Virus record (IMG/VR): IMGVR_UViG_2671181134_000002
Coordinates: 1 to 6,437 of that record
DNA length: 6,437 nucleotides
Strand: one strand, 5' to 3'
DNA from: a virus
Lineage: Duplodnaviria > Heunggongvirae > Uroviricota > Caudoviricetes
In this document: piece after piece, positions 1 through 6,437 of the stretch
Layout: each line of letters starts with the position of its first letter
Position numbering within the stretch: the stretch's first letter is position 1
Notes under the pieces: generated by a model
Told to the model about the DNA's origin: nothing
What the model saw: the letters and a program-made list of their open reading frames with translations, nothing else
Databases searched by the model: none
Position numbers and translations under genes: made by a program

Positions 1-518
1 ACGAACTGGTTGTTAAAGGGATAAATAATTACCCGGATAAGATTACTGTTACTGTGGCACTGGAAACGGGTGGGTATACGTCACTGTTGTTGCCAAATGT
101 GGTGATTGATCTTGATCGTGTTGAAGGTGCCCCGCTGGAGTTTTACGAAGCTGAGGCGAAAAAGAAGGCGAAGCAGTTTTTCATGGATATTTCTGCCGGG
201 TTATGTGAAGGGGATGAGCAGTCGCCGGAAAAGCGCCCCATAATTTTAGAGGCGCAGGATGTGTTGATAACCTACAGAGGAAAACTACCGGGAATAATTA
301 CTGGTTCTCTGAAGACGCCACCGACGGCATTGCGGTCAGAAAACGATGATATTGAATCACGCATTGAAAAACTGGAGTGCTATATCGCTGAATTGAAAAA
401 AAGCACCCCAACAAAAAATGAGGTGCTTGCAGCAGATGAAATGAAAGAAACTATTCTTGATCGCGCGGCGCATCTAAGCTGCGCTTCACTGTTGAAAGAG
501 CATCTTCAGCAGCCTTGA
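1..518 (+). CDS. Hypothetical protein, 3' portion only (ORF open to the window start; N-terminus lies upstream)
   Basis: Frame 3 is open from position 3 with no stop until TGA at 516-518, so the track's Met at 54 is probably internal. Hydrophilic, charged, helix-rich translation with no motif I recognise. Region is visibly more AT-rich than the terminase genes. Confidence 0.5.
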   Translation, partial: ELVVKGINNYPDKITVTVALETGGYTSLLLPNVVIDLDRVEGAPLEFYEAEAKKKAKQFFMDISAGLCEGDEQSPEKRPIILEAQDVLITYRGKLPGIITGSLKTPPTALRSENDDIESRIEKLECYIAELKKSTPTKNEVLAADEMKETILDRAAHLSCASLLKEHLQQP

Positions 519-690
519 GGAATCTTTTATCATCACGAGCAACTGTCTTTGGTATTTCTTTAATTAGATGTTCCATTTCGGCGATCAGGTAATCTGACAC
601 AGCGTTATTTTTACTTAGTGCATCCATTGCTTTGATTATCTTTGCGAGGCAGCCATCTCGCATTGTTGAGTTTACGCCAGTGCCCACCAC
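451..690 (-). CDS. Hypothetical small protein (70-79 aa), doubtful; convergent with and overlapping the 3' end of the 1-518 ORF
   Basis: Track ORF begins with a GTG at 690; first ATG is at 663. Translation is amphipathic and helix-like, but I find no Shine-Dalgarno before either start and it overlaps the opposite-strand ORF by 68 nt. Confidence 0.25.
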   Translation of the reverse strand: MVGTGVNSTMRDGCLAKIIKAMDALSKNNAVSDYLIAEMEHLIKEIPKTVARDDKRFLKAAEDALSTVKRSLDAPRDQE

Positions 691-751
691 TGGCGGGCTG
701 AAGACTTAACATATCCAGGGATTCGGAACCGATAAATCCTGATAAATATCC

Positions 752-1285
752 ATGAACGCAAAAATCAGATACGGCCTGTCGGCTGTCGTTCTGGCGCTGA
801 TTGCCGCAGGGGCTTCTGCGCCTGAAATCCTCGACCAGTTTCTGGATGAAAAGGAAGGTAACCACACCACGGCATACCGTGATGGTGCGGGTATCTGGAC
901 CATCTGCCGTGGAGCCACCCGGGTGGATGGTAAGCCTGTGATTCCTGGCATGAAGCTGTCGAAGGAAAAATGCGACCGGGTTAACGCTATCGAACGGGAT
1001 AAGGCGCTGGCATGGGTGGCGAAAAACATCAGAGTGCCACTGACCGAACCTCAGAAAGCGGGGATCGCGTCATTCTGTCCGTACAACATTGGTCCCGGTA
1101 AGTGTTTCCCGTCGACGTTTTACAGACGAATTAATGCTGGTGATCGCAGGGGAGCATGCGAGGCGATTCGCTGGTGGATTAAGGACGGTGGCAGGGACTG
1201 CCGTATCCGCTCAAATAACTGTTACGGTCAGGTATCCCGGCGTGATCAGGAGAGCGCGCTGGCGTGCTGGGGAATCGACAGATAA
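752..1285 (+). CDS. R: SAR endolysin (phage lysozyme, R21/T4-lysozyme-like, GH24)
   Basis: 177 aa. N-terminal hydrophobic Gly/Ala-rich signal-anchor-release segment (YGLSAVVLALIAAGASA). Catalytic E-x8-D-x5-T arrangement in EGNHTTAYRDGAGIWTICRG. Central and C-terminal blocks (RRINAGDRRGACEAIRWW, RRDQESALACWG) resemble phage 21 R as I recall it. Confidence 0.9.
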   Translation: MNAKIRYGLSAVVLALIAAGASAPEILDQFLDEKEGNHTTAYRDGAGIWTICRGATRVDGKPVIPGMKLSKEKCDRVNAIERDKALAWVAKNIRVPLTEPQKAGIASFCPYNIGPGKCFPSTFYRRINAGDRRGACEAIRWWIKDGGRDCRIRSNNCYGQVSRRDQESALACWGIDR

Positions 1286-1375
1286 GAAGAATATTTTGCT
1301 GAAAAATGACGTTGGCCAACGCGGGCGGATAACACGAAATCCTGCGAACTGGCAAAACCTAAGTGAATAAAAGTA

Positions 1376-1416
1376 AAAACCCCGTTTGTTGGCAGCAAGC
1401 GGGGTTTTGTGTTTCT
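1376..1416. terminator. Putative intrinsic terminator, possibly bidirectional
   Basis: Perfect 9-bp stem AAAACCCCG (1376-1384) / CGGGGTTTT (1400-1408), followed by a T-rich tract TTTTGTGTTTCT and preceded by an A-tract. Confidence 0.5.
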
Positions 1417-1441
1417 GACCTTGGATAAGGCAAGGGAAAAC

Positions 1442-1624
1442 ATGGAAAAGTATAAACGAATTCTGTTGAGGTTGACTATGAAAAACGGCCTTGAACTGAA
1501 AGCGCCTGTAACTGATGACATCAGCAGAGCGCTGGCTTTTGCTATTAAGTGGGTGGCGGTCGGTATTGCTGTGTCTCCGATGCTGTATGGACTAGCAAAA
1601 CTGGTCATTGCGTTGAAATCGTGA
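1442..1624 (+). CDS. Small membrane protein inside the lysis cassette (possible holin/antiholin-like or lysis accessory protein)
   Basis: Track ORF 1409-1624, but 1409 lies inside the terminator hairpin. ATG at 1442 is preceded by AAGGGA about 6 nt upstream. 60 aa with a charged N-terminus and one long C-terminal hydrophobic segment (AFAIKWVAVGIAVSPMLYGLAKLVIAL). Confidence 0.4.
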   Translation: MEKYKRILLRLTMKNGLELKAPVTDDISRALAFAIKWVAVGIAVSPMLYGLAKLVIALKS

Positions 1625-1636
1625 AGAGGATTAAGC

Positions 1637-1780
1637 ATGTCAGACAAGCGTCATAACGCTGGCGAAGATCCTCTGTGTAATCGTCGGCATTTCATTTTCA
1701 CTAATGCTGGTTGCTATTTTTCTTTCCCTGGGCTGGATGATGTTGTCTTCGTCGGGGATGCTGGGGTGAGGGGGATATGA
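1637..1780 (+). CDS. Hypothetical 47-aa ORF, translationally coupled to Rz
   Basis: ATG 1637 preceded by AAGAGGA; stop TGA 1778-1780 overlaps the Rz ATG (1777-1779) as ATATGA. Below the ORF-track size cutoff; translation [47 protein letters not shown] has no recognisable motif. Confidence 0.2.
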
Positions 1781-2244
1781 ACCGTGTTCTGTGTGTGGTG
1801 ATTATTGTCCTGCTGGTGGCCTGTGGTGCGCTTAGTCTGGGGCTGAATCATTACCGCGATAACGCCATCACCTACAAAGCGCAGCGAGATAAAAAAGCCA
1901 GAGAGCTGGAGCTGGCAAACGCAACCATTACTGATATGCAGGTGCGCCAGCGCGATGTTGCTGCGCTCGATGCAAAATACTCGAGGGAATTAGCTGATGC
2001 GAGAGCTGAAAATGAAACTCTGCGTGCTGATGTTGCCGCTGGTCGTAAGCGCCTGCGGATCAACGCCACCTGCCACGGTACCGTGCGTGAAGCCACCGGC
2101 ACCTCCGGCGTGGATAATGCAACCGGCCCCCGACTGGCAGACACCGCTGAACGGGATTATTTCACCCTCAGAGAGCGGTTGATGCTGATGCAGAAGCAGC
2201 TGGAAGGGGCACAGGACTATATCCGCACTCAGTGCCTGAATTAA
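1777..2244 (+). CDS. Rz: Rz i-spanin (inner-membrane spanin subunit)
   Basis: 155 aa. N-terminal transmembrane helix ([20 protein letters not shown]) followed by a charged coiled-coil periplasmic domain; sits just downstream of the endolysin; contains an embedded +1-frame lipoprotein ORF. GAGGGGG Shine-Dalgarno precedes the ATG. Confidence 0.85.
1997..2182 (+). CDS. Rz1: Rz1 o-spanin (outer-membrane lipoprotein), embedded in Rz in a different frame
   Basis: Signal peptide with lipobox L-V-V-S-A-C, then a short proline-rich mature domain ([34 protein letters not shown]). True start may be the internal ATG at 2012 ([15 protein letters not shown]). Confidence 0.8.
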
Positions 2245-2246
2245 CA

Positions 2247-2272
2247 GAGCCAGCTTAATCGCTGGCTTTTTC
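2247..2272 (+). terminator. Putative intrinsic terminator downstream of Rz
   Basis: Stem GCCAGC (2249-2254) / GCTGGC (2261-2266) with a 6-nt loop, followed by TTTTT (2267-2271). Begins 3 nt after the Rz stop. Confidence 0.45.
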
Positions 2273-2319
2273 ATATCTGAATTTCACCGCGCATCTCACG
2301 CGCATATCACATCCCCGAG

Positions 2320-2411
2320 CCTTTCAGAAAGTTGAGCCTGAGAACTGCCGTATATGGTGGCGACCATCTCGGGGCGGCTTTTCTGTGAGACAGGCTCAAT
2401 TTTCTGAAAGG
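2320..2411 (+). promoter_or_regulatory. Near-perfect 21-bp inverted repeat bracketing the rha 5' leader; right arm overlaps the rha ribosome-binding site
   Basis: CCTTTCAGAAAGTTGAGCCTG (2320-2340) versus CAGGCTCAATTTTCTGAAAGG (2391-2411): 20 of 21 positions complementary, 50-nt spacer. Right arm contains AAAGG about 9 nt before the rha ATG at 2421. Confidence 0.4.
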
Positions 2412-2420
2412 TAAAACGCG

Positions 2421-2987
2421 ATGAACTATCCGACGATTGTTGACGGTATTGATTTTCGCCAACTGGTAACAGCGGCAGATGGCGAACCAATAACAGACTC
2501 TTTTCAGATCGCTAAGGCGTTTGGTAAGCGTCATGCGGACGTATTGAGGGCGCTGAAAAATTGCCATTGCTCTGAAGATTTCCGGAGAGCGCATTTTTGC
2601 GTTGCCGAAAAAATCAATGAGTTAGGGATTTTCGACAAGAAGCAGATTTACTACCGCATGGACTTTAGCGGCTTCGTTATGCTGGTTATGGGATTTAACG
2701 GGGCAAAAGCTGATGCCGTTAAAGAAGCCTATATTAATGCCTTTAACTGGATGTCCGCTGAACTCCGTAAGTTCAGTGAAAGTTATGAAGCTGAACGCAA
2801 CGCTGTAATGCTGGAGTACATGAAAGAGAAAGATGTTGCCAGTATGTCAGGTCGTTTGCTCAATCGCTGGGGCAGGGTGAAGAAGCCTCAGTTGCTGGCA
2901 AGGCTGGACAGGCTGGACAGGCTGGACAGGCTGGAGCAGCAGGGGCAGATTGCGTTACCCGGATTTGATAAAGGCATTTCAGCCTGA
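2421..2987 (+). CDS. rha: Rha-family phage regulatory protein
   Basis: 188 aa. N-terminal region (DGEPITDSFQIAKAFGKRHADVLRAL) matches the conserved Rha/ORF6 N-terminal domain as I recall it. Variable C-terminus carries an (RLD)n repeat. Confidence 0.8.
   Translation: MNYPTIVDGIDFRQLVTAADGEPITDSFQIAKAFGKRHADVLRALKNCHCSEDFRRAHFCVAEKINELGIFDKKQIYYRMDFSGFVMLVMGFNGAKADAVKEAYINAFNWMSAELRKFSESYEAERNAVMLEYMKEKDVASMSGRLLNRWGRVKKPQLLARLDRLDRLDRLEQQGQIALPGFDKGISA
2894..2938 (+). repeat. 9-bp tandem repeat GCTGGACAG inside rha (three perfect copies flanked by two degenerate ones)
   Basis: Perfect copies at 2903-2911, 2912-2920 and 2921-2929; degenerate copies GCTGGCAAG (2894-2902) and GCTGGAGCA (2930-2938). 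Encodes LARLDRLDRLDRLEQ in frame. Confidence 0.85.
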
Positions 2988-3177
2988 CATAGCCATGCGC
3001 CGTATCGTCGCCGTATTCCTGCATTAACAGAGACCGCAGCCCGACAGGGAGACTCCTCTGCGCGAGTGTGCGGGGATAATCAAAAACGATGCACACCGGG
3101 GTTTACCGCGTTAACGGAGCGCGGCGTTGTCCCCTCATAGTCGCCTGTCCGGTGCGATGGTGGAAGAAACCGAACGT

Positions 3178-3378
3178 TCATTTCTCGTTATTTTTCATGC
3201 TGGCCGGGCGCAGATGCGTTGCATCTGTTGCCAGCCTTCTCCTGCAGGCTTCAATAACCCACGCTGAAAAGTTACCGGACCCTTTATGCTCAAGGGCTAT
3301 GTTGATTTGTTCAATTATGTGATTGGGGAAACGGATATTGCGGGTTGTGGTTCTGCGGGTCCGGTTTTTCGATGACAT
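3178..3378 (-). CDS. Ribbon-helix-helix (Arc/MetJ/CopG-type) DNA-binding protein, reverse-oriented
   Basis: 66 aa. NIRFPNHIIEQINIALEHKGSGNFSAWVIEACRRRL fits the RHH pattern: beta-strand, helix A, a G-S-G-N turn, helix B (compare Arc NLRWP...NGRSVNSEIYQRV). AAGGA lies about 8 nt before the ATG on the minus strand. Confidence 0.6.
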   Translation of the reverse strand: MSSKNRTRRTTTRNIRFPNHIIEQINIALEHKGSGNFSAWVIEACRRRLATDATHLRPASMKNNEK

Positions 3379-3398
3379 ATTTATTTCCTTTACTGATT

Positions 3399-3408
3399 GT
3401 CATATGAC
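3399..3408. promoter_or_regulatory. Perfect 10-bp palindrome GTCATATGAC in the 41-bp gap between the divergent RHH and HNH start codons
   Basis: Direct reading of the sequence. Lies in the leader of both divergent genes. Confidence 0.3.
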
Positions 3409-3419
3409 GGGGATTTTAC

Positions 3420-3785
3420 ATGGCTGAGCTTCGTACACTCCAGAGCAGAATCAAAACACTGAATACCCGACGGGTGAATATTCTGAAGGGGGAACAGCGT
3501 CGTGTCAGTGGCAGTGCACGTGTTTCCCTCAAGCGTCATATCTGGCTCAGGGACGCCGGGCAGTGCTGTCTCTGTGGTCGTGTGGTTGACCTCTGTGACA
3601 GTGAACTTGATCACCGAATTGCACTTCAGTTCGGTGGTGGTAATGAGGAGACGAATCTCTGGACGCTCTGTACCGAATGCCATCGACAAAAGTCTGCTCG
3701 TGAAGCGGCGGGTGGTATGCCGGACCCGACGCTGCCGGAGGTGTCCGGAGGTAGTGGCAGAGCGGACGACATCATCGGACTGTAA
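3420..3785 (+). CDS. HNH endonuclease (phage packaging-associated)
   Basis: 121 aa. Two Cys pairs (CCLCG, CTECH) flank the HNH core SELDHRIALQFGGGNEETNLWTLCTECHRQK. Sits immediately upstream of the terminase genes, as in HK97-type cos phages. Confidence 0.85.
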   Translation: MAELRTLQSRIKTLNTRRVNILKGEQRRVSGSARVSLKRHIWLRDAGQCCLCGRVVDLCDSELDHRIALQFGGGNEETNLWTLCTECHRQKSAREAAGGMPDPTLPEVSGGSGRADDIIGL

Positions 3786-3876
3786 CCCGACCCGGGGGGG
3801 GATCATCCGGCGTAAAAAACGATCGCTCCGGACACCGCGCCCCCTCTCACGCAGAGAAAAAATTCCCGTTTCAGGG

Positions 3877-4004
3877 CAGTTAACATGTTAACTGGCTGCC
3901 CGGGCATTTTTGCGGTTTTTATCTTTATTATTCAGTTTGTTGTGCGGAAAAAATGTTAACTGGCTTTTTCAGCAAATGTTAACCAGGCAGCAGTTAACAT
4001 TTGC
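3877..4004. repeat. Array of GTTAAC-containing palindromes and inverted repeats; candidate terminase-binding / cos-proximal region
   Basis: 18-bp perfect palindrome CAGTTAACATGTTAACTG (3877-3894); TGCCCGGGCA palindrome (3897-3906); ATGTTAACTGGC (3953-3964); 12-bp perfect inverted repeat GCAAATGTTAAC (3972-3983) / GTTAACATTTGC (3993-4004) with a 9-bp spacer. Confidence 0.45.
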
Positions 4005-4074
4005 GGCATGAGACGCCGGGAAAAATGGGCTGAACCATACCCGGCTGAGTGCGTTCTGGACCCGGGAGGAGGCT

Positions 4075-4785
4075 GTGCTGACAACGCAAAAACGAAAATT
4101 TGCGCTGGCGCTCATGTCCGGGAAAAACAAAACAGCGTCAGCCATTGCCGCCGGTTATTCGGCGAAGACCGCCAGGGTTAAAGGCTCACAGCTGGCAAAA
4201 GATCCGGAGGTGCTTGCGTTTATAGCCCGTAAACAATGCGAGACGGTGGAGGTGGATGAGGTTCCTGTTTACCGGCAGAAAAAATCAGAGCAGGAGGATA
4301 AACCCCGTCGCCGTGAGGCGGCTGCAATACCACAGCCGGACGAAAACAATCCGGAGGTGCTTGCGTTTATAGCCCGTAAACAATGCGAGACGGTGGAGGT
4401 GGATGAGGTTCCTGTTTACCGGCAGAAAAAATCAGAGCAGGAGGATAAACCCCGTCGCCGTGAGGCGGCTGCAATACCACAGCCGGACGAAAACAATCCG
4501 GAGATGCCACCGTCCGCGGTGATGTCTCCTGGTATTGAATATATGGAGGATGGTCTTCCCGATCCGGTGAAAGCCATGGGGCGGATCCTGGTGGAAAACC
4601 TCTGCATTGATCCGAAACTGGCACTGGATGCGGCCTGGCGTCTGGCGCAGTTCACGCACCATAAAAAAGGGGATACCGGGAAAAAATCGGCAAAAGGTGA
4701 TGCCGCGAAAAAAGCGGCTAACCGTTTTGCTGTGCCACCGCCACCCCGACTGGTGGTGAATAACGATAATGAGGGAAACGGATGA
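4075..4785 (+). CDS. terS: Terminase small subunit (P27 / Terminase_2-type)
   Basis: GTG start preceded by GGGAGGAGG. N-terminus KRKFALALMSGKNKTASAIAAGYSAKTARVKGSQLAKDPEV carries the AGYSAKTA helix-turn-helix signature of this family. Stop overlaps the terL start as ATGA (4782-4785). Contains an internal 49-aa perfect duplication. Confidence 0.85.
   Translation: MLTTQKRKFALALMSGKNKTASAIAAGYSAKTARVKGSQLAKDPEVLAFIARKQCETVEVDEVPVYRQKKSEQEDKPRRREAAAIPQPDENNPEVLAFIARKQCETVEVDEVPVYRQKKSEQEDKPRRREAAAIPQPDENNPEMPPSAVMSPGIEYMEDGLPDPVKAMGRILVENLCIDPKLALDAAWRLAQFTHHKKGDTGKKSAKGDAAKKAANRFAVPPPPRLVVNNDNEGNG
4204..4497 (+). repeat. Perfect 147-bp direct tandem duplication (2 copies) inside terS
   Basis: 4204-4350 and 4351-4497 are identical base for base by my alignment. 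In frame, duplicating PEVLAFIARKQCETVEVDEVPVYRQKKSEQEDKPRRREAAAIPQPDENN. Junctions carry the 8-bp microhomology ATCCGGAG at 4202-4209, 4349-4356 and 4496-4503. Confidence 0.9.
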
Positions 4786-6437
4786 TACCTGTATGGAGCA
4801 CAGCCTGCCCGGACTGGGCAGAGCGCCTGAAAAAGGGGCTGTCGATTATTCCGGATCCGATTTATCCGGACGAGGCCGCACATGCCCTGGCGATTTTTAA
4901 ACAACTGCGGATAGTGGATGCACCTGGTAGCCCTACGTTCGGGGAGTCCTGTGCACCGTGGGTGTTTGACCTGGTGGCGGCCCTGTTTGGCTCCTACGAT
5001 GCGCAGACCGGTGTACGCCATATCAAGGAAGTTTTTATCCTTATCCCCAAGAAAAACAGCAAGTCCACGCTGGCTGCCGGGATCATGATGACGGCGCTGT
5101 TACTGAACTGGCGGCAGGCGGCGGGCTACACCATTCTGGCCCCGACCGTGGAGGTGGCGGCTAACGCCTTCAACCCTGCCAGGGATATGGTTCGACGGGA
5201 CGATGATCTGGATGACCTCTGTCAGGTGCAGACACATATCCGGACCATCACCCATCGGGTGACGGACACCACCCTGAAGGTGGTGGCAGCCGATCCGAAT
5301 ACGGTGTCCGGTATCAAGTCCGTGGGGACACTGATTGATGAACTGTGGCTGTTTGGCAAGCAGTACAAAGCGGAAGACATGTTACGTGAAGCCATCGGCG
5401 GGCTTGCCTCCCGTCCGGAAGGATTTGTGGTGTATACGACCACCCAGTCGAATGAACCGCCCGCCGGGGTGTTCAGACAGAAACTGCAGTACGCCCGGGA
5501 TGTGCGCGACGGCAAAATTCATGATCCGCACTTTCTGCCGGTGATATTTGAACACCCTCCTGAAATGGTGGAAAGCGGAGCTCACCTGCTGATGGAAAAC
5601 CTCGCCATGGTCAATCCGAATCTCGGCTATTCAGTGGATGAGGCTTTTCTGTGCCGGGAGTACCGTAAAGCCCGGGAAGCCGGTGAAGATACATTCCGGG
5701 GGTTCATGTCAAAACACGCCAATGTGGAAATTGGTCTTGCCCTGCGTTCTGACCGCTGGGCGGGTGCGGATTTCTGGGAGCAGCAGGGCAGGCGCGTCAG
5801 CCTGGACGATATCCTGCAGCGCGCTGATGTGGTGACGGTGGGGATTGACGGCGGGGGCCTGGATGATCTGCTGGGAATGTACGTGATTGGCCGTGACAGG
5901 GAAACCCGCGAATGGCTGGGCTGGGGCCATGCCTGGGCGCATGAAACCGCGGTGGTCAGACGGAAGAGTGAGGCATCCCGTTTTCAGGATTTTGTGGCCT
6001 GTGGAGACATGACGATTGTCCGTCGGGTCGGGGATGACACGGCGGAAGTGGCGGAGTATGTGCGTCGTATTCATGAGGCTGAGTTACTGGATCATATCGG
6101 TATTGACCCGTCAGGTGTGGGGCAGATTCTGGATTCACTGGCGGAAGCCGGGATCCCCGACGGAATTGTTGTGGGGATAAGCCAGGGCTGGAAGCTGGGC
6201 GGGGCCATCAAAACCACCGAGCGCAAACTGGCTGAGGGAGTGCTGGTGCATGGTGGTCAGCCACTGATGGCCTGGTGCGTTGGCAATGCCCGGGTGGAGC
6301 CTAAAGGTAACGCCATCCTTATTACCAAACAGGCCAGCGGACGGGGGAAAATTGACCCGCTGATGGCGCTGTTCAATGCGGTATCCCTGATGTCCCTGAA
6401 TCCGGAGCCCAAAAAGAAAGAATATGCGGTTTTTTTC
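4782..6437 (+). CDS. terL: Terminase large subunit, 5' 552 codons (open to the window end)
   Basis: Frame open from ATG 4782 to the end of the window, so absent from the ORF track. Walker A-like VFILIPKKNSKSTLAAG, Walker B-like TLIDELWLF, and nuclease-domain motif VVTVGIDGGGLDD. Start overlaps the terS stop. Confidence 0.9.
   Translation, partial: MIPVWSTACPDWAERLKKGLSIIPDPIYPDEAAHALAIFKQLRIVDAPGSPTFGESCAPWVFDLVAALFGSYDAQTGVRHIKEVFILIPKKNSKSTLAAGIMMTALLLNWRQAAGYTILAPTVEVAANAFNPARDMVRRDDDLDDLCQVQTHIRTITHRVTDTTLKVVAADPNTVSGIKSVGTLIDELWLFGKQYKAEDMLREAIGGLASRPEGFVVYTTTQSNEPPAGVFRQKLQYARDVRDGKIHDPHFLPVIFEHPPEMVESGAHLLMENLAMVNPNLGYSVDEAFLCREYRKAREAGEDTFRGFMSKHANVEIGLALRSDRWAGADFWEQQGRRVSLDDILQRADVVTVGIDGGGLDDLLGMYVIGRDRETREWLGWGHAWAHETAVVRRKSEASRFQDFVACGDMTIVRRVGDDTAEVAEYVRRIHEAELLDHIGIDPSGVGQILDSLAEAGIPDGIVVGISQGWKLGGAIKTTERKLAEGVLVHGGQPLMAWCVGNARVEPKGNAILITKQASGRGKIDPLMALFNAVSLMSLNPEPKKKEYAVFF

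Follow-up and report, generated by a model that had tools for sequence, protein, structure and literature searches.

The question that this locus raises is what a 289-bp gap, dense in copies of GTTAAC, does between the gene for an HNH endonuclease and terS, the gene for the small terminase subunit. The gap spans positions 3786–4074 of the window, by which we mean the whole 6,437-nucleotide stretch of DNA that was analyzed (IMG/VR record IMGVR_UViG_2671181134_000002, positions 1–6,437) and which is the late region of an Escherichia coli lambdoid prophage of the BP-4795/2851/Lys8385Vzw type (Stx-type). An earlier note, made from the letters of the window alone, had proposed that the GTTAAC palindromes mark a cos (cohesive-end) or terminase-binding region, with operators for a late regulator as the alternative. 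Comparison with near-identical and related phages, from which we take its location, indicates that the gap contains a cos site. Probably, the phage packages its DNA by an HNH-assisted cos mechanism and the gap is its cos site, with the GTTAAC array as the putative TerS-binding part.

The position of the cut was obtained from phages with known or recorded ends. PhageTerm analysis assigned Lys8385Vzw to the cos phages, with a 3′ cohesive end of 10 nt, CGCCCCCCCT, at the end of its genome (PMC7946995). Its record starts with CTCACGCAGAG, 229 bp upstream of its terS, and ends with ...GGACACCGCCCCCCCT, and the junction of the two corresponds to window positions 3845|3846, where the window reads GGACAC|CGCGCCCCCT|CTCACGCAGAG. 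Because the Lys8385Vzw end and the record junction align there, we place the cohesive end at 3836–3845 and the beginning of the mature left end at 3846; at 3839, within the overhang, the window has G and the Lys8385Vzw-type sequence C. The same position was found in a distant relative, the Burkholderia phage Bcep176, whose record carries the 10-mer CGCACGTTCC at both ends, with CCTAGAC before and CTCACGCGCAGAAAATTTTCCC after it, exactly at the aligned cos position. The Variovorax phage VarioGold has a 10-nt 3′ end, CGATCGGTTC (PMC9658991), and this published end resembles the 10-mer of one of our relatives (L014; loci are cited by their L numbers). The records of phi330 and of several Burkholderia phages begin at arbitrary points near terS and were excluded as evidence. 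Fixed ends with an approximately 10-nt 3′ overhang were located by this homology between the HNH gene and terS, and the cos site is in the gap upstream of terS where the earlier note had expected it. The nick site is not in the palindromes, however, but 31 bp to their left. Among E. coli prophages the cohesive end is polymorphic: position 3839 is G in 46 variants and C in 15, and position 3844 is C in 55 and G in 7. Co-resident prophages of the BP-4795-type family could therefore have mismatched ends.

The elements around the cut form a core that consists of the following features (window positions):

3794–3801, plus strand: G8 run, the left-most conserved cos element; a run of G6–10 stands at the same place in approximately 60 of 71 aligned relatives
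3830–3835, plus strand: GGACAC, left flank of the nick site, running into the overhang; family consensus [GT]A[CG]ACCG
3836–3845, plus strand: cosN, the predicted 10-nt cohesive end CGCGCCCCCT with 3′ overhang, by homology to Lys8385Vzw and Bcep176; +1 of the left end is 3846
3846–3868, plus strand: CTCACGCAGAGAAAAAATTCCCG, right flank of the nick, with the consensus CACGCNCAGA-W6/7-CCCC; the best-conserved block, in approximately 70 loci

This core is shared far beyond E. coli. Relatives of TerL, the large terminase subunit, were collected at one genome per species, which gave 453 confirmed matches, and 80 loci with a TerL 59–84% identical to the query were kept. An nhmmer profile of the non-coding DNA block that precedes terS gave one match per locus in 78 of 86 loci, every match on the terS strand and mostly approximately 400–600 nt upstream of terL, in Enterobacterales, Burkholderiales, Pseudomonas, Xanthomonas, and others. 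The 71 strongest matches were aligned and have a common order: a run of 6 to 10 G, approximately 35 less conserved nt, [GT]A[CG]ACCG, a variable C-rich stretch of approximately 10 nt, and CACGCNCAGA, after which come an A/T stretch of six or seven nt, CCCC, and TTT; a Shine-Dalgarno sequence and then the start of terS follow, the latter approximately 39 nt after the cut. Across approximately 70 loci the cohesive 10-mer varies while both of its flanks are kept. The G run ends 44 nt before the right chromosome end in the window and 42 nt before it in Bcep176 and HK97, and because it is kept at the same place in relatives we consider it a conserved cos element and not an incidental one. Its length differs in close relatives (G7 in Lys8385Vzw, G8 in the window, G9 in BP-4795, and G10 in phi330; L001 and L003 are included), and position 3801 is G or T in the E. 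coli variant set.

The array lies to the right of this core. The sequence CAGTTAACATGTTAACTG (3877–3894) is a perfect 18-bp palindrome, and GCAAATGTTAAC (3972–3983) and GTTAACATTTGC (3993–4004) are the arms, 9 nt apart, of a perfect 12-bp inverted repeat. The octamer ATGTTAAC occurs five times, with three plus-strand copies (3885, 3953, and 3976) and two minus-strand copies (3879–3886 and 3993–4000). All five fall between the nick site and terS, at +34 to +155 counted from the cut. The parts of the array are:

3877–3894, no strand: 18-bp palindrome with two TGTTAA cores (3880–3885, minus strand, and 3886–3891, plus strand); a relic terS ATG stands at 3885
3895–3949, no strand: T-rich spacer of 32–38% GC, with T5 tracts at 3907 and 3916, which includes TGCCCGGGCA
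3950–3962, plus strand: motif copy C, AAAATGTTAACTG, between the arms of an A6/T5 inverted repeat
3972–4004, no strand: motif copies D (plus strand) and E (minus strand), which make up the 12-bp perfect inverted repeat

Chance occurrence of these repeats was assessed with 5000 dinucleotide-preserving shuffles of the 289-bp gap. Five copies of GTTAAC were observed versus a mean of 0.07 per shuffle, and five of ATGTTAAC versus 0.007, and none of the 5000 shuffles reached five in either case; a palindrome of at least 18 bp appeared in 10 of 5000, and at least three CCCGGG in 6 of 5000. The whole window has 7 GTTAAC versus 0.94 expected, 5 of them within 120 bp, and the GC content of the array region is 32–38% versus 52–72% in the flanks. 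The palindrome, the inverted repeat, the half-site copies in both orientations, and the G8 run, which is the only G or C homopolymer of at least 6 in the window, are all present as the earlier note had described them, and by the shuffles the repeats are far beyond chance. The CCCGGG palindromes that it had counted as two are present too, but there are three (3791–3796; 3899–3904, within the 10-bp palindrome TGCCCGGGCA at 3897–3906; and 4061–4066).

What reads the array is suggested by the TerS proteins of the relatives, which fall into two classes that have the C-terminal part in common (43% identity over 37 aa) and differ in their N-termini. The type-A N-terminus, M(A)LT.KKR.FA, is that of the window TerS. 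A profile of it matched the SF6-type small-terminase DNA-binding domains 2cmp and 4zc3 (approximately 2e-6) and the full-length structure 3zqp (1.5e-5); this family profile was needed, as a search of the single TerS sequence against solved structures gave weak matches only (E = 0.24). The N-terminus of the window TerS is thus a helix-turn-helix DNA-binding domain homologous to that of the SF6-type/G1P proteins. The type-B N-terminus (MAGVKG.SGG..RPGAGRK) had no Pfam match. Proteins of this type (L026 2455–2991, L013, L019, L033, and others) have an Arg/Gly-rich, AT-hook-like N-terminus, GGARPGAGRKPK, sometimes twice, and their genes have the same cos core, code for the same C-terminal domain, and are preceded by 1 to 3 copies of (G)AAATCAAA.

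Motifs were then counted in the non-coding DNA from the end of the shared core (+25) to the start codon in 46 type-A and 23 type-B loci. TGTTAA or TTAACA was found in this spacer in 35 of 46 type-A versus 0 of 23 type-B loci (Fisher p = 2e-10) and AATCA(AA), a motif picked after viewing the data, in 20 of 23 type-B versus 0 of 46 type-A loci (p = 1.5e-14), p-values that overstate independence because the loci are phylogenetically related. The two TerS types are not separate clades, because near-identical TerL proteins pair with either type: TerL pairs that are 95% (L025 and L026, from Pandoraea), 91%, and 87.5% identical carry different TerS types, and the two DNAs of such a pair agree as far as the CCCC block and diverge beyond it. 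Because the right flank CTCACGCAGAGAAAAAATTCCCG is common to loci of either TerS type, it is more likely read by TerL or the HNH protein than by the DNA-binding domain of TerS. In phages lambda and 21, packaging specificity lies in a matched small-subunit domain and repeats on a shared nick site. A motif specific to the small-subunit domain on a shared nick site was found here as well, with linkage as a caveat.

Both motifs also occur repeatedly. TGTTAA or GTTAAC, whose background rate is 0.34 per kb, is present in four copies in the 144-nt spacer of L016, in three (GTTAAC) in L077, in two to three in L010 and L082, and in five in the window, which indicates by comparison of these loci that the motif was multiplied independently in several lineages; the type-B motif is likewise repeated, with three copies in L019 and two in L013, L022, L033, L037, and L053. 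In addition, TGTTAA is kept in the non-coding spacer from Shine-Dalgarno to ATG across several bacterial orders, between which the TerS N-termini are 44–54% identical. From these comparisons, the GTTAAC array is most likely the binding site of TerS.

The relatives also show where the first copies come from. In the Salmonella phage FSL SP-016 and 11 other Enterobacterales relatives, a cos block of approximately 95 bp ends with GT(A/T)AAC-(A/G)TG-TTAAC. In this sequence terS begins, with ATG TTA ACA (Met-Leu-Thr) as codons 1 to 3. The 18-bp palindrome of the window is homologous to this start region, and the ATG at 3885 is the old start codon. The palindrome stands at +32 to +49 from the cut, a position kept across all type-A loci, and in relatives without the insert described here the gap ends at it. 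Alignment with these relatives indicates that the ancestral terS junction was split by a 182-bp segment:

3893–4074, plus strand: 182-bp lineage-specific insert, which splits the old terS start from the working start; absent in SP-016 and the 11 Enterobacterales relatives
4064–4072, plus strand: GGGAGGAGG, putative Shine-Dalgarno sequence of the working terS start, read from the sequence

The insert holds three of the five motif copies (3950–3962, 3972–3983, and 3993–4004) with AT-rich DNA between them, and terS resumes at 4075 as GTG CTG ACA behind the new Shine-Dalgarno sequence; before the relic ATG, CAGGGC now stands in place of the ancestral Shine-Dalgarno sequence GGAGGG, which has decayed. 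In the coding copy the motif is gone (ATG TTA ACA to GTG CTG ACA), and the non-coding, cos-proximal copy is a perfect palindrome; it follows from this difference that the place of the motif is kept with respect to the cut and not to the start codon. We also considered the region upstream of the working terS start as a clean duplicate of the ancestral Shine-Dalgarno sequence and start, which the alignment supports weakly. The old start codon opens a relic open reading frame of 24 codons (3885–3959; MLTGCPGIFAVFIFIIQFVVRKKC, hydrophobic with a basic tail). Seven of its sites differ among the 63 E. coli variants, and 4 of these (3899, 3902, 3905, and 3947) are third positions at which the change is synonymous.

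A segment of this kind might be a miniature mobile element inserted at ATGTTAAC, with the repeats as transposon ends. CCCGGG lies 7 and 9 nt from its junctions (3899–3904 and 4061–4066), and the junction sequences ATGTTAAC and GTGCTGAC agree in 5 of 8 letters, much as a target duplication would after decay, but the terminal inverted repeats are very weak and no further copies were found in phage records outside the BP-4795-type family. A search of 5426 complete E. coli genomes found the insert in 1244 of them, at 2945 places in all, versus 2952 places for the adjacent terS 5′ end; these matching counts indicate that the insert always accompanies terS and does not occur alone. A mobile element is extremely unlikely on this evidence, and an origin by insertion would in any case be compatible with a present function in packaging.

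Several observations weigh against taking the array as the site that TerS reads. HK97 TerS binds +15 to +29 from the cut, beside an A-tract (PMC11331095), and HK97 is the only member of the HNH-assisted packaging class with a mapped TerS site; in the window an A-tract block stands at +12 to +17, and an A/T tract is conserved there in every relative. In the ancestral palindrome, the right half codes for Leu-Thr. Eleven type-A loci have no exact TGTTAA in the spacer, 10 of them Enterobacterales with TGTAAAC or TATAAAC followed by a coding ATGTTAAC and the eleventh L071. The covariation of motif and TerS type may partly be linkage in a swapped cassette, because the motif lies within 60 bp of its partner domain, and the loci counted are related, as stated above. 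The spacings between the five copies are 8, 68, 23, and 15 bp, without helical regularity, and a search of 3786–4074 for the IHF consensus WATCAANNNNTTR with at most 1 mismatch gave no match; present are only AT-rich DNA and the T5 and A6 tracts. The position of the cohesive end in the window prophage is taken from the ends of relatives, and the window terS carries an unusual duplication of 49 aa.

The HK97 site also supplies an alternative, in which the GTTAAC copies would be functionless by-products of the relic start region and of local duplication at insert formation, and TerS would read the core, for example the A-tract block at 3854–3868, as in HK97. It is in keeping with this that ATG TTA ACA is simply Met-Leu-Thr in relatives, that the repeat units exceed the core of the motif (AACATGTTAACTGGCT versus AAAATGTTAACTGGCT, and GCAGTTAACAT twice), which suggests duplication, and that the E. 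coli copies are young. However, the core is identical in loci whose TerS proteins have different N-terminal domains, and because of this identity across both TerS types the core alone cannot explain recognition by the TerS N-terminal domain. Four findings fit poorly with by-products, namely the TGTTAA kept in the non-coding spacer across several orders despite the divergence of the TerS N-termini, the independent multiplications in L016, L077, and L010/L082, the retention of the motif in the non-coding copy at the cut and its loss from the coding copy, and the invariance of the octamers in E. coli while third-codon positions of terS vary. The last was seen in a comparison of 63 distinct sequences from 82 E. 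coli loci, in which 0 of 38 octamer positions were polymorphic versus 16 of 100 third-codon positions of terS (p = 0.006); polymorphic positions number 12 of 182 across the insert (p = 0.02) and 1 of 18 in the palindrome, and the octamers of copies C, D, and E are invariant. Conservation among the E. coli copies is weak evidence because these are young, 95–100% identical. Taking the points on both sides, we regard the by-product explanation as unlikely.

The array might otherwise serve gene expression, either as operators or a promoter for a late regulator or at the RNA level, with hairpins and the 24-codon upstream reading frame tuning the translation of terS. Palindromes could bind a dimeric regulator, and a weak sigma-70-like match, built from the repeats, runs on the minus strand from 3982 to 3953; but no minus-strand gene lies downstream of it, and neither a promoter-like site on the plus strand nor a terminator was found. 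The late mRNA would have a hairpin at the 12-bp inverted repeat, but the fold of 3846–4090 is no better than that of shuffles (z = -1.3) and no Rfam match was found at E up to 1, so that the late-regulator operators of the earlier note are left unsupported. The terminase genes lie inside the late operon, 3′ of the lysis genes, and the distance of the motif is constant to the cut and not to the working terS start. As for the relic reading frame, its Shine-Dalgarno sequence is the decayed one, and the excess of synonymous changes (4 of 7) is not significant (approximately p = 0.17, a binomial estimate). A role in expression is therefore, in our judgment, very improbable.

For the array as TerS site, we propose the following mechanism. 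The terminase, with the HNH protein as a presumed requirement, would make staggered nicks that leave the 10-nt 3′ overhang CGCGCCCCCT, and the mature left end from 3846 would be packaged first, followed by terS and terL. The G8 run, GGACAC, CTCACGCAGAGAAAAAATTCCCG, and the overhang would be read by TerL and the HNH protein and would travel with them. The part specific to TerS would stand immediately to the right of this core, as the counterpart of lambda cosB, and consist of copies of (A)ATGTTAAC(Y), which the N-terminal helix-turn-helix domain of the Terminase_2-type TerS may read. The ancestral site would be the first copy pair, that is, the palindrome at +32 to +49, which overlaps the terS start codon in relatives, and in the E. 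coli lineage the 182-bp insert would have moved terS away and added three copies with AT-rich DNA between them. An array of several sites could let a TerS oligomer assemble and position TerL at the nick site, with a putative benefit from the extra copies.

Parts of this picture are known already, namely the cos end of the Lys8385Vzw family (PMC7946995) and HNH-assisted cos packaging. In the literature searched, of which coverage was incomplete, we found no description of the GTTAAC/TGTTAA motif or of a TerS-binding site, of the family-wide skeleton, or of the pairing of TerS domain and motif. The general picture of how cos phages function is unchanged, and the element is of an ordinary kind. 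What is added is a base-level map, for a family spread across many Proteobacteria, of the G run, the 10-nt overhang, its flanks, and the predicted TerS motif, and a prediction that the helix-turn-helix TerS reads TGTTAA and the Arg/Gly-rich TerS AATCAAA. The packaging family was found in more than 450 bacterial species, and the module in approximately 23% of the complete genomes of E. coli, some of which have as many as 7 copies. It is carried by many Stx1-, Stx2a-, and Stx2c-converting phages, and the cos site determines which DNA these phages, and mimics, can move. The map could be used in annotating prophage ends, in cos-based transduction vectors, and in predicting cross-packaging among co-resident prophages. 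One might go further and see in the array an adaptively expanded recognition site, in which duplication of the terS start turned one TerS site into five and gave the prophage priority for terminase over co-resident prophages of the same family or satellites, with the TerS domain and its motif as a swappable specificity cassette that defines incompatibility groups; this is speculation, to which we give a rather poor chance.

The genes of the window fit with a packaging site at this place. Those recognized are:

752–1285: lysozyme gene
1777–2244: Rz gene
2421–2987: Rha-family gene
3178–3378, minus strand: DUF3950 gene
3420–3785, plus strand: terminase-associated HNH endonuclease gene, 121 aa, PF01844 (E = 7.5e-7, above the family cut-off)
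4075–4785, plus strand: terS, 236 aa, PF03592 (Terminase_2) at residues 2–57 (E = 1.4e-8)
4782–6437, plus strand: terL, which continues past the end of the window, PF03354 (TerL_ATPase) and PF20441 (TerL_nuclease)

The HNH gene (3420–3785) directly adjoins the terminase genes, with terS from 4075 and terL from 4782, and the matches to PF01844 and PF03592 bear out the earlier calls of the two genes that flank the gap. An HNH endonuclease is annotated in BP-4795 too, and an HNH gene is at the same position in relatives and in Bcep176. Positions 3300–4900 match 94 phage records at 93.5–98.5% identity, most of which are Stx1a-, Stx2a-, and Stx2c-converting phages, including BP-4795, 2851, 1717, YYZ-2008, and Lys8385Vzw.

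Two further observations concern this gene block. Within terS, positions 4202–4507 are an in-frame tandem duplication of 147 bp (2.1 copies, 99% identical), equal to 49 aa, within the linker that joins the helix-turn-helix domain to the C-terminal one. None of the 80 IMG/VR relatives has this duplication (terS is 561 nt in them, and 558 nt in two), and the listed phage matches are approximately 147 bp shorter than the window query and align in two pieces in this region. In PPompW-type prophages, an IS110-family element (ISEc20) abuts the cos G run (L004 1546–3004, PPompW_132418; approximately window position 3797); it stands directly after the Q gene and tRNA genes, the lysis genes and the HNH gene are missing, and several records have the same junction.

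Compared with known packaging systems, the window is closest to Lys8385Vzw, BP-4795, 2851, and 1717, which are Stx-converting phages with the same element. The gap alone is 95.5–98.3% identical in full-length phage matches (98% in Lys8385Vzw), and the window differs from these phages in the G instead of C at 3839 and in the 147-bp duplication in terS. More distantly, HK97 has the same gene order of HNH, cos, terS, and terL, and a TerL of the same Pfam family (the HK97/Terminase_1 class), the window TerL being 23% identical to HK97 gp2 over approximately 480 aa (E = 2e-12). The place of the cut is alike as well, at approximately 40–50 nt before terS in relatives. A G9 run ends 42 nt before its right end, and GAC|CGC stands at the left nick; the HK97 ends (L088 783–833 and L087 1–50), when set against window 3794–3868, have the same geometry. 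HK97 also has a 10-nt 3′ overhang, and its cos cleavage is reported to be stimulated by the HNH protein (PMC11331095). A recognition element for TerL and HNH that is common to HK97 and the window family may thus be older than either TerS type. In contrast, the window TerS belongs to PF03592 with a helix-turn-helix and has no similarity to HK97 gp1, and BLASTP of the window HNH protein against HK97 gp74 was not significant (E = 0.077). For HK97 TerS there is one site of 15 bp, at +15 to +29, which is read while the DNA passes through the ring (PMC11331095), and in the window there is a repeated motif at +32 to +159. The HK97-type arrangement proposed by the earlier note holds for the HNH gene with TerL and for the 10-nt 3′ overhang, but not for TerS, which is of the Terminase_2 kind and like SF6/SPP1 G1P.

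In the lambda family (cosQ, cosN, and cosB; specificities of lambda, 21, and N15), packaging specificity comes from a shared nick site with a matched small-subunit DNA-binding domain and repeats (PMC4669245), and the window resembles it in having a nick site, then repeats that appear specific to the small subunit, and then the small-subunit gene. It differs in that the overhang of lambda is 5′ and of 12 nt, in that lambda has another class of TerL and lacks an HNH protein, and in that cosB has three R sites and an IHF site, for which the gap has no consensus match; the repeats of the two have no sequence similarity. With SPP1 and SF6 the likeness lies in TerS itself, whose N-terminal helix-turn-helix is a homologue of the SF6-type DNA-binding domain of known structure. 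The binding site of G1P is made up of several short repeats, in DNA that is bent and AT-rich and flanks the cut. These phages, however, package by headful from a pac site, without fixed ends and without an HNH protein, and their repeats are unrelated to those of the window.

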